64,000 bases of DNA, taken from assembly GCA_041746975.1 (NCBI GenBank), contig JBGTGB010000058.1, positions 3,855-67,854 of the forward strand. Direction: 5' to 3'. Within the stretch, counting starts at the first letter, position 1. Each line of letters starts with the position of its first letter. Below, in pieces: positions 7,971 to 9,337 of the stretch. The position numbers and the translations under genes were made by a program. Under the pieces are notes generated by a model, which was not told where the DNA came from, made no database searches, and saw nothing but the letters and a program-made list of their open reading frames with translations. Source of the DNA: Haliea sp. (GTDB taxonomy: Bacteria; Pseudomonadota; Gammaproteobacteria; Pseudomonadales; Halieaceae).

Positions 7971-8285
7971 ATGGCAGCCTATATGGTGGTCGAGGCAGAA
8001 ATTGAGCAGCCTCAGGGGTTTGCGGCCTATGCGAGAGCGGTGCCGGCGCTGGTGGCGGAATACGGTGGCGAGTATCTTGTGCTCGGCGGAGAGGCGGAGT
8101 CTCTGGAAGGGGATTGGGGTGGCGTCCGGCTGGTGCTGCACCGCTGGCCCGACCGCGACACGGCCCGCCGCTTCTGGCACTCTCCCGAATACCGGGAACT
8201 CAAGCGCCTGCGCGAGGGAACCGGCACCTTTCGTGTTATGTTGCTTGAGGGGCTGGAGCGAGAAGTGCTGGAGAACGCGCCATGA
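7971..8285 (+). CDS. DUF1330 domain protein
   Basis: AYMVVE...FAAYARAVPALVAEYGGEYLVLGG...LEGDW...FWHSPEYRELKRLR; AGGAG RBS at 7961. Confidence 0.85.
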   Translation: MAAYMVVEAEIEQPQGFAAYARAVPALVAEYGGEYLVLGGEAESLEGDWGGVRLVLHRWPDRDTARRFWHSPEYRELKRLREGTGTFRVMLLEGLEREVLENAP

Positions 8286-9337
8286 GTATTGCACCCTATG
8301 CGGCGCTGGCACTGCAGATGCGCTGTGATGCGGTCAATGGCTGCAACGACGTCAGTGAGGCACGCCGCCAGATGCTGCAGACCATCGCCCGCTGTGACGG
8401 GCTTATCCGCGGCAGCAAGGGGTTCTTGCGCACTTTTGCCGGCCAGGAGATCAGGCTGGTGGTACTGCCGGAATACTTCATGACCGGTTTCCCCATGGGC
8501 GAGTCTGTTTCCGCCTGGATTGAGCTCGCCTGCATCGAGGAGAATGGCCCCGAATACCAGGCCCTGGCGCAGGTAGCGCGGGCGCACAATGTCTACCTCT
8601 CTGGCAATGTCTACGAGCTCGACCCGCACTTCCCGGGCCTGTATTTCCAGACCAGTTTTATTCTTGCGGACACGGGCGAGCGCGTGCTGCGCTACCGGCG
8701 TCTGCTCTCCATGTTCTCGCCCACGCCCCACGATGTGCTCGAGCGCTATGTCGAGGTATACGGTGAGGAGTCTCTGTTCCCGGTCGCCGACACTGAGCTC
8801 GGCAAGCTGGCCTGTGTTGCCTCAGAGGAAATTCTCTATCCGGAGATCAGCCGTGCCCTCGCCTTGCGGGGGGCGGAGGTCATTTGCCACTCCTCCAGCG
8901 AGGTGGGCAGCCCATTGGCTACGCCCAAGAATATCGCCAAGCAGGCCCGAGCCCTCGAAAACATGGCCTACCTGGTCTCCGCCAATAGCGCCGGCATCGC
9001 CGGGATAGCGTTTCCCGAGGCCTCCACGGACGGGCATTCCCAGGTTGTGGACTACAAAGGTCGGCTCTTGGCGGAGGCGGGGCCAGGTGAATCCATGGTG
9101 GGCTGTGCAGAGCTGGACGTTGCGGCTCTACGGCGGGCGCGAGCTACACCGGCTATGGGCAATCTCCTGGCGCGACAGCGTCTGGACCTGTTCGCGTCTA
9201 CCTATAGTGACCGCGTTGTCCATCCCCCGAATACGCTACTGGACCCGGATAACGGAGCTATCAAAGTGCCGGACCGGACCCACTTCATGGACACCCAGCG
9301 CGAAGCTATCGCTCGCCTGCGCGAGCCCGGCAAATAG
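8282..9337 (+). CDS. Carbon-nitrogen hydrolase (nitrilase superfamily) with non-canonical active site
   Basis: LVVLPEY, LRYRR, GKLACVASEEILYPE, RALENMAYLVSAN, GHSQVVDYKG; ATGA overlap with upstream gene. Confidence 0.88.
   Translation: MSIAPYAALALQMRCDAVNGCNDVSEARRQMLQTIARCDGLIRGSKGFLRTFAGQEIRLVVLPEYFMTGFPMGESVSAWIELACIEENGPEYQALAQVARAHNVYLSGNVYELDPHFPGLYFQTSFILADTGERVLRYRRLLSMFSPTPHDVLERYVEVYGEESLFPVADTELGKLACVASEEILYPEISRALALRGAEVICHSSSEVGSPLATPKNIAKQARALENMAYLVSANSAGIAGIAFPEASTDGHSQVVDYKGRLLAEAGPGESMVGCAELDVAALRRARATPAMGNLLARQRLDLFASTYSDRVVHPPNTLLDPDNGAIKVPDRTHFMDTQREAIARLREPGK

Follow-up and report, generated by a model that had tools for sequence, protein, structure and literature searches.

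A nitrilase-superfamily protein of Haliea sp. and its relatives with Glu-Arg-Ser at the positions of the Glu-Lys-Cys triad

The window analysed here is a stretch of 64,000 nucleotides from Haliea sp. (GenBank assembly GCA_041746975.1, contig JBGTGB010000058.1, positions 3,855 to 67,854 of the forward strand), and positions are counted from its first letter. The gene of interest, at 8282..9337 (+), encodes a CN_hydrolase protein of 351 aa, hereafter the hydrolase, which is assigned to the 'ASEE' Glu-Arg-Ser (E-R-S) clade of the nitrilase superfamily on the basis of its translation, the Pfam domain PF00795, an AlphaFold2 (AF2) model and Foldseek. The open reading frame (ORF) is intact, starts with ATG and is preceded by GGAG 8 nt upstream. 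In a Pfam search PF00795 (CN_hydrolase) covers residues 52-287 with E = 1.2e-33 (profile positions 28-255 of 256; cut-off 23 bits), and the protein is without a signal sequence. The catalytic Glu of the superfamily is retained as Glu64 within LPEY (codon GAA, 8471..8473 (+)). The position of the catalytic Lys is taken by Arg140 within YRR (CGT, 8699..8701 (+)), and that of the catalytic Cys by Ser181 within ASEE (TCA, 8822..8824 (+)). The next two residues, Glu182-Glu183 (8825..8830 (+)), were placed by alignment with relatives: Glu183 matches the Asp/Glu usually found two residues past the nucleophile, and Glu182 is clade-specific, being Tyr/Phe in Glu-Lys-Cys (E-K-C) relatives and Gly in relatives with Glu-Arg-Cys (E-R-C). 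Asp151 (GAT, 8732..8734 (+)) is an invariant acid in the first turn of the helix that follows the Arg strand, Lys216 (8927..8929 (+)) is a clade-specific Lys where 47/61 E-K-C relatives carry Trp, and Cys178 (TGT, 8813..8815 (+)) is a nearby Cys inside strand 174-180. The original prediction, made from the letters of the window, had named the retained Glu of LPEY, the codons for Arg140, Ser181 and Cys178 and the intact frame of 351 aa, all of them correctly.

Alignments to solved enzymes were made both pairwise and with a 60-sequence profile, and the five structures used were yeast Nit3 (1f89), worm NitFhit (1ems), the Pyrococcus enzyme 3ivz and the Geobacillus and Pseudomonas aliphatic amidases (2plq/2uxy). 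With all five, the catalytic Lys falls opposite Arg140 and the catalytic Cys opposite Ser181, for example KISLIVC166DDGNYPE against KLACVAS181EEILYPE and YRK134 against YRR140. The Glu of the triad is present, and Lys and Cys are replaced in every alignment; together with the PF00795 match this confirms the predicted replacement of E-K-C by E-R-S. The residue equivalences and their conservation among homologs are far beyond chance. The best NCBIfam models for the hydrolase are formamidase NF009803 (68.1 bits against a cut-off of 406) and aliphatic amidase NF009802 (61.9 against 427), and the omega-amidase/deaminated-glutathione amidase models NF033621 and NF043013 reach 38.6 bits (cut-off 355) and 49.8 bits (cut-off 500). 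By curated thresholds the hydrolase is neither an aliphatic amidase, nor a formamidase, nor a Nit-type omega-amidase. Its descent and fold place it in the superfamily, yet it lacks the defining catalytic triad.

The AF2 model was run with the 60-sequence alignment and has a mean pLDDT of 89 and a pTM of 0.91. The order of its secondary-structure elements agrees with the alpha-beta-beta-alpha sandwich domain. The catalytic Cys of the nitrilase superfamily sits on a beta-turn-alpha 'nucleophile elbow' (PMC7616060). In the model a strand (174-180) is followed by Ser181-Glu182 and a helix (183-195), and in this predicted structure Ser181 occupies the nucleophile elbow in place of the Cys. Like the canonical Glu and Lys, Glu64 and Arg140 come after strands (57-61 and 134-139, respectively). 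The original prediction had left room for Cys178 to stand at the elbow; this residue lies three positions before Ser181, within the strand, and it is Ser181 that is found at the strand-turn-helix junction. A further helix spans residues 149-160, with Asp151 at its start, where nitrilases carry a second Glu. In the profile alignment Glu142 of AmiE falls opposite the variable position 155, and the sequence alignment is ambiguous there; on the model, Asp151 is a candidate equivalent of the second catalytic Glu of the E-E-K-C tetrad.

A Foldseek search of the PDB gave a probability of 1.0 to more than 200 solved members of the superfamily. The top matches were the aliphatic amidases 2uxy, 2plq and 4kzf and the formamidases 5g3p and 2e2k, at about 20% identity, TM 0.6-0.69 and E of about 1e-18, and no closer solved structure was found in this search. 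The amidases and formamidases (AmiE/AmiF; 2uxy, 2plq, 2e2k, 5g3p) are therefore the best structural matches as well as the best NCBIfam models. They share with the hydrolase a length of about 340-350 aa with a C-terminal extension past the core domain, the first Glu (FPEY, LPEY in the hydrolase), a ..YPE sequence beyond the nucleophile, and the motifs GAE and R-A-x-E. They differ in identity (about 20%), in having Lys134 and Cys166 where the hydrolase has Arg140 and Ser181, in the pocket residue Tyr192, which aligns with an invariant Glu207 of the hydrolase, and in lacking the Glu182 that follows the nucleophile position; the hydrolase also has a loop inserted after the Arg strand and a different genomic context. 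The best sequence matches in the PDB are to the Nit/omega-amidase branch (1f89, 1ems and mouse Nit2, 2w1v), with E values of 2e-15 to 2e-17 and the whole core aligned. However, the members of that branch are E-K-C enzymes of about 270-290 aa without the C-terminal extension, and they act on 2-oxoglutaramate or deaminated glutathione.

A search of 5.8 billion proteins returned thousands of relatives, of which the best 120 (62-100% identity) were analysed. E64, R140, S181, E182 and E183 are invariant among them, and 12 of them carry Ala or Thr in place of Cys178. A scan with one genome per species for two family motifs, SM[YF][SA]PTPHD and ASEEIL[YF]PE, found them in at least 599 species-level genomes of six phyla. 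Carriers in the Gammaproteobacteria include Halieaceae/Luminiphilus, SAR92, Cellvibrionales, Pseudohongiella, Woeseiaceae, Paraglaciecola, Thalassotalea and Shewanella, and those in the Betaproteobacteria include Massilia, Rhodoferax and Paucibacter. Alphaproteobacteria, Bacteroidota, Chloroflexota and Acidobacteriota are represented as well, and the actinomycete Nonomuraea was added by tblastn. Cultured carriers are Paraglaciecola mesophila, P. chathamensis, Thalassotalea algicola, Shewanella glacialipiscicola, Massilia hydrophila, Exilibacterium tricleocarpae and Nonomuraea gerenzanensis. The closest genomic homolog among the matches listed is that of a Lysobacterales metagenome-assembled genome (68% identity).

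Residues were counted over 82 homologs extracted from genomes of different species. Glu64 and Asp151 are present in 82/82, and Arg140, Ser181, Glu182, Glu183 and Lys216 each in 81/82. The E-R-S combination is likewise found in 81/82, and the lone exception is a divergent paralog in one locus with Glu-Lys-Ala (E-K-A). This second CN_hydrolase copy lies in the cluster of locus L034, at the 3' end of the locus, is only 27% identical and has E-K-A, Gln182, Arg183 and Thr216. The most conserved residues of the family are those of the pocket (E64, Y65, R140, D151, S181, E182, E183, E207 and K216). Among the pairs with more than 80% identity, 53 in number, the 40 closest gave Nei-Gojobori (NG86) dN/dS values of 0.02-0.16. 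Arg140 is encoded by CGN as well as AGR codons across the homologs, and Ser181 by TCN in 76 of them and by AGY in five. The AGY codons are spread over at least four separate lineages, each with TCN in its nearest relatives. A switch between TCN and AGY needs two nucleotide changes, and its recurrence with Ser restored each time argues that the Ser181 hydroxyl itself is under selection. No Cys column is invariant in the family. Cys178 was considered as the true nucleophile and ruled out, as it lies inside the strand and is retained in only 53/82 of the genomic homologs (Ala in 22, Thr in 7, 29 replacements in all). None of the other conserved Cys residues is invariant either (Cys15, 77/81). A singleton or pseudogene is ruled out by the 120 E-R-S homologs, the 599 or more genomes and the low dN/dS. 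The original prediction of a new branch rather than decay is borne out by these data, and its alternative of a lone copy among close homologs with E-K-C is not, since the close homologs are E-R-S; as a whole the prediction, which also proposed a Ser nucleophile or non-hydrolytic chemistry, is partly supported. This bacterial branch is large, strongly conserved and, in the literature covered, so far unstudied.

The sequence of 7965-9337 is present at 100% of sampled words in two independent metagenome runs. The public sequencing runs that contain it are DNA runs labelled hot springs metagenome, and no RNA run was found among them. Scans for Rfam families, sigma-70 promoters and terminators around the hydrolase gene gave nothing informative. 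An antisense ORF of 234 aa (8027-8731 (-)) overlaps the gene, and an equivalent open frame is present in 34 of the 81 loci described below; it is most simply the shadow of a constrained GC-rich gene.

A HMMER scan of 1.84 billion representatives yielded 183 clusters at E <= 1e-30, and the best 150 of the 183 were classified by positions 64/140/181. Thirty were of the 'ASEE' E-R-S type, and 16 carried a P-C-G-E motif with Arg present and Cys kept (E-R-C). Most of the others were canonical E-K-C ('ICYD'), with smaller lineages of E-K-S, E-K-A, Q-K-A and E-R-A. The E-K-S type includes P0134, P0136, P0217, P0160, P0193 and P0228, the E-K-A type P0177, P0181, P0214, P0243, P0235 and P0250, and the Q-K-A/G type P0180, P0182, P0200 and P0227. 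Tandem two-domain relatives of about 580-745 aa were also found (among them P0123, P0132, P0134-P0136, P0142, P0145, P0146, P0151 and P0152). Their C-terminal domain is E-K-C (or E-K-S). In their N-terminal domain, Gly, Asn or Ala stands in for the Cys and the Glu is often missing, which makes this domain look like a built-in pseudo-domain. Departures from E-K-C are thus recurrent in this region of the superfamily and are not unique to the ASEE clade. One relative of 434 aa, P0157, was considered as a fusion of a DUF1330 protein with the hydrolase; its N-terminal extension is unrelated, and the fusion was ruled out.

Compared with its E-K-C neighbors, the clade is distinguished by K140R, C181S, Y/F182E, W216K, I/V180A and N123Q. 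By Y/F182E and W216K, two aromatic pocket walls have become Glu and Lys. Shared with the E-K-C relatives are the scaffold residues P149, D151, G161, F166-P167-V168, G174, P187-E188, R191 and G197-A198-E199, and also H203, R223, E226, S233, N235, S253 and R287. The E-R-C relatives ('PCGE'; P0130, P0139, P0147, P0162, P0164, P0170 and others) are 33-44% identical to the hydrolase, of similar length and have Arg for Lys; N109, P149, D151, H203 and the remaining scaffold are common to both. They differ in keeping the Cys, in having Pro at 180 and Gly at 182, and in having Trp or Gln rather than Lys at 216. They are as uncharacterised as the ASEE clade. In 100 neighbor-joining (NJ) bootstraps the ASEE clade was recovered 89 times and its sister relation to the E-R-C sequence P0130 73 times. 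A second lineage of E-R-S/E-R-A sequences (P0192, P0254, P0229 and P0188) formed a clade of its own in 59 and joined the ASEE clade in 3. One NJ tree grouped all Arg-bearing sequences into a single clade, but only 8/100 bootstraps did so, and the grouping was discarded. The position of P0130 suggests, with moderate support, that the Lys-to-Arg replacement came first and Cys-to-Ser later, which is the likeliest order, and the latter replacement possibly happened twice. Of the two coordinated substitutions in the original prediction, both are present, but their simultaneous origin is probably not correct.

The hydrolase gene is preceded by a gene for a DUF1330 protein of 106 aa (7965..8285 (+); PF07045, E = 2e-26), whose stop codon overlaps the ATG of the hydrolase (ATGA, 8282-8285); from this arrangement the two genes are considered to be translationally coupled. 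Further upstream are genes for a DUF1838 protein (6990..7865 (-); PF08894, E = 4e-73), a glyoxalase/VOC-fold protein of 188 aa (6372..6938 (-); domain search) and an aldehyde dehydrogenase (ALDH) of 518 aa (4844..6400 (+)). The closest models of the ALDH are HpaE and 2-hydroxymuconic semialdehyde dehydrogenase, both below cut-off. The DUF1838 and VOC-fold proteins start with signal-peptide-like sequences (MHIRQLLAAGLGALLVCSASAEQ... and MHTPFLSALLAVALWLPLAAAAAP...) and are probably exported. Downstream of the hydrolase lies a gene for a PrpR-like sigma-54 activator (9356..11296 (-); domain search), where most other loci have a GntR/UTRA regulator instead. It is followed by a family III CoA-transferase gene (11540-12739 (+)) and an HMG-CoA-lyase-like (HMGL-like) gene (12739-13656 (+)), which overlap by one base. 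The CoA-transferase is similar to the succinyl-CoA:mesaconate and succinate-glutarate transferases. Subfamily cut-offs are exceeded by the HMGL-like protein (HMG-CoA lyase) and by the LeuC-like subunit found among the loci described below (an isopropylmalate-dehydratase subfamily). The order in the window is TonB receptor, SSF symporter, Amdase-like (-), FAD monooxygenase, ALDH, VOC-fold (-), DUF1838 (-), DUF1330, hydrolase, PrpR-like (-), CoA-transferase, HMGL-like, CoA-transferase, TonB receptor, EamA (-), two isochorismatases, alpha/beta hydrolase and CoA-transferase (-). A sigma-54 promoter-like site, TGGCACAACACCTGCT (11478-11493 (+)), has one mismatch to TGGCAC-N5-TTGCW. It is intergenic, just upstream of the operon of CoA-transferase and HMGL-like genes and beside the divergent PrpR-like activator; the total count of such matches in the window is not above chance, and none lies upstream of the DUF1330 gene. 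The region 1-22006 contains a FAD_binding_3 monooxygenase gene, an Amdase/maleate-isomerase-like gene, two isochorismatase genes and an alpha/beta hydrolase gene, a set which we take to resemble the nicotinate 'maleamate' pathway. Identity with that pathway was rejected, as no NCBIfam equivalog cut-off was reached by the neighboring genes.

The ORFs of 81 loci were clustered and searched again with jackhmmer; many of the contigs are short, and all locus counts are lower bounds. The DUF1330 gene is immediately upstream of the hydrolase gene on the same strand in 37/81 loci, with gaps mostly of -4 to +11 nt. An ALDH gene is present in 49/81 and lies immediately downstream of the hydrolase gene in 21/81. 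Other recurrent genes are those for a VOC/glyoxalase-fold protein (56 of the 81 loci), family III CoA-transferase (44), an MFS transporter (42), a GntR/UTRA regulator (37), DUF1838 (36), a 226-aa membrane protein without a Pfam match (35), a FAD_binding_4 oxidase (34), an alpha/beta hydrolase (33), an HMG-CoA-lyase-like protein (30), LeuC-like and LeuD-like hydratase subunits (27 and 29), an NADP enone-reductase-like alcohol dehydrogenase (27), isochorismatase (26) and paired PuuE-like genes of the polysaccharide-deacetylase fold (22). TonB-dependent receptors also recur, and the locus holds several C-N hydrolases of other folds. Among PuuE-like proteins, BpIH has been characterised as a cyclic imidase (PMC11424739). 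The cluster is found again in Gamma-, Beta- and Alphaproteobacteria, Bacteroidota, Chloroflexota, Acidobacteriota and Actinomycetota. Its minimal form in Alteromonadales is a cassette of DUF1330, hydrolase and ALDH genes with a divergent MFS gene, and in Paraglaciecola a GntR gene and two MmgE/PrpD genes come next. The locus of Paraglaciecola mesophila (L026, 15348-18095 (+)) is without LeuCD-like genes, and two MmgE/PrpD-family genes and a PaaK-like ligase gene adjoin the cassette. From this gene content, one hydratase for cis-unsaturated polycarboxylates may be able to take the place of another in the pathway. In Nonomuraea the order is ALDH, a 166-aa unknown protein and hydrolase. DUF1838 and VOC-fold genes also flank an E-R-C relative. 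Taken together, the neighbors point to a cytoplasmic catabolic locus that would end in hydration, CoA activation and cleavage of substituted di-/tri-carboxylic acids.

A cytoplasmic, functional enzyme is the best explanation of the hydrolase from its sequence and setting. That it is a Ser-nucleophile hydrolase in a catabolic pathway is a reading to which we give about an even chance. In this mechanism, Ser181 on the nucleophile elbow would attack the carbonyl carbon after activation by Glu64 as the base, and Arg140 would act as a clamp that holds the oxyanion or a carboxylate of the substrate. The intermediate would be an acyl-O-enzyme (ester) in place of the thioester, as a thioacyl intermediate is impossible at position 181. 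With Lys and Cys both replaced, the chemistry must depart from the textbook mechanism. Glu182 and Lys216, in place of the aromatic pocket walls, would fit a small, charged, carboxylate-bearing substrate, which may be derived from an unsaturated or ring-fission acid as its amide, enamide, imide or ester. The hydrolase would work with the coupled DUF1330 protein and the adjacent ALDH, the latter handling the product or the precursor of its substrate. The route would end in substituted di-/tri-carboxylic acids, to be used by the LeuCD-like/PrpD-like hydratases, the family III CoA-transferase and the HMG-CoA-lyase-like enzyme. Hydrolysis of amides by a Ser nucleophile with a Glu general base is known from the sedolisins (serine-carboxyl peptidases, Ser-Glu-Asp), which have an unrelated subtilisin-like fold and no homology to the hydrolase; by this mechanistic analogy only, a Ser/Glu pair is chemically feasible for amide hydrolysis.

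A broader proposal, which is tentative and in our estimate rather doubtful, is that the hydrolase is the first natural serine-type (Ser-Glu-Arg) center in the nitrilase fold and forms, with the co-transcribed DUF1330 and ALDH genes, a new three-gene catabolic module for N-heterocyclic, cyclic-imide or ring-fission compounds. Here an amide or lactone, cyclic or unsaturated, would be isomerised by the DUF1330 protein. Its opening or deamidation by the Glu-Arg-Ser hydrolase, by way of an acyl-O-enzyme, would then release an aldehyde or acid, and the product would be oxidised by the dehydrogenase. The module might represent a widespread, undescribed route in marine, freshwater and soil bacteria. 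Ser in place of Cys might shield the enzyme from oxidation and from Michael addition by alpha,beta-unsaturated substrates. An acrylamide adduct on the active-site Cys of a related amidase is present in the Foldseek list as 4gyl, and another has been described as 4IZU (PMC7616060).

Several observations weigh against a Ser nucleophile. No characterised relative was found, and every relative goes by one of the generic names 'predicted amidohydrolase', 'nitrilase-related' and 'hypothetical'. A Ser hydroxyl is activated less well by Glu than a thiol is, and Cys-to-Ser variants have been used as inactive forms in crystallography. The Foldseek list includes an example of such an inactive variant, the C158S deposit of MtCPA (5h8k/5h8l). 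The Glu-Lys-Cys triad was described as conserved across all 13 branches with an invariant catalytic Cys, and a Cys165Ala mutant of a characterised member was completely inactive (PMC7616060). Neighboring E-K-A, Q-K-A and E-R-A lineages have Ala or Gly at the nucleophile position; full loss of the nucleophile is tolerated in this part of the superfamily, and Ser181 may therefore have a non-nucleophilic role.

Such a role is the substance of a non-covalent or non-hydrolytic enzyme, an explanation we consider unlikely. Ser181 would only hydrogen-bond the substrate, and Glu64, Asp151 or Glu182 would activate water or drive tautomerisation, enamine/imine deamination, decarboxylation or isomerisation, while Arg140 and Lys216 clamp carboxylates. 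It is favored by the charged pocket residues Glu182, Lys216 and Arg140, which replace aromatics and Lys, and by the Ala/Gly lineages, which persist as full-length standalone proteins. The tight link to ALDH and DUF1330 would fit an aldehyde unmasking or ring-fission product step, as would the ring-fission semialdehyde dehydrogenases that are the best, below cut-off, models of the ALDH. The DUF1330 fold is a small dimeric alpha/beta-barrel like that of muconolactone isomerase. However, Ser itself is kept in the clade and is never Ala, Thr or Gly through the four or more switches between codon sets, suggesting a demanding role of the hydroxyl, and Glu64 is kept together with the remaining hydrolase scaffold. 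We know of no precedent for chemistry of this kind in the fold, which also counts against this explanation. A catalytically dead pseudoenzyme, which would serve as a ligand-binding, scaffolding or regulatory subunit, for example as a partner of DUF1330 or ALDH, is decidedly less probable. Two of the three canonical catalytic residues are gone, and the N-terminal domain of the tandem relatives, in which Gly replaces the Cys, is obviously dead. The translational coupling to DUF1330 would be in keeping with a complex, and specific ligand binding would also account for the conservation of the pocket. Yet the strongest conservation falls on pocket residues, the dN/dS values are as low as those of housekeeping enzymes, and the gene is found within operons of catabolic enzymes over six phyla, often without DUF1330. 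The last explanation, that an ordinary E-K-C amidase gene is here in decay or wrongly assembled or that the alignment is at fault, has in its favor only the prior expectation of an invariant E-K-C (PMC7616060). It has a negligible probability and is refuted by the intact ORF, the two independent metagenome runs, the E-R-S residues of the species homologs under strong purifying selection, and the consistent equivalences in independent alignments to five structures.

Several 'uncharacterised subgroups' of the superfamily are listed in domain databases and may already include these sequences without comment. Literature searches on E-R-S or E-R-C nitrilase-fold proteins, Ser/Arg variants, CN hydrolases without Cys, pseudoenzymes of the superfamily, sequence-similarity-network surveys, DUF1330 with nitrilase, and DUF1838 with DUF1330 found nothing relevant in the journals covered, which were not all journals, and neither a solved structure nor a curated family for E-R-S or E-R-C proteins of this fold came up. 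Databases contain the clade as sequence, but it has gone unrecognised as a catalytic variant. The E-K-C triad is treated as invariant and is the basis for annotation and for the design and engineering of nitrilases and amidases. A widespread, selected Glu-Arg-Ser center in this fold would surprise specialists. If true, the fold would support another catalytic solution, a point of interest for oxidation-resistant biocatalysts and for how enzyme mechanisms evolve. Annotations of these genes as 'nitrilase' or 'deaminated glutathione amidase' would prove unfounded, and a functional context open to testing would become available for DUF1330, DUF1838 and several unnamed proteins. The conserved, undescribed catabolic cluster is common in marine Halieaceae, SAR92 and Cellvibrionales, in Cytophagales and in other groups, and the cultured carriers make the question directly testable.

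Plasmid records around a homolog were only unannotated or generic ones, with no known pathway. Genes of the CpeT/CpcT type (bilin-lyase family, PF06206) lie beside the cluster in some heterotrophic Gammaproteobacteria, for example at 15334-16506 (-) in locus L004 and at 1-156 in L093. A bilin or tetrapyrrole link through these CpeT-like neighbors was dropped, as jackhmmer found them in only 8/81 loci. Small proteins of no assigned family also recur, with weak calycin-like matches (unk166 to DUF3598_N and unk243 to DUF3108).

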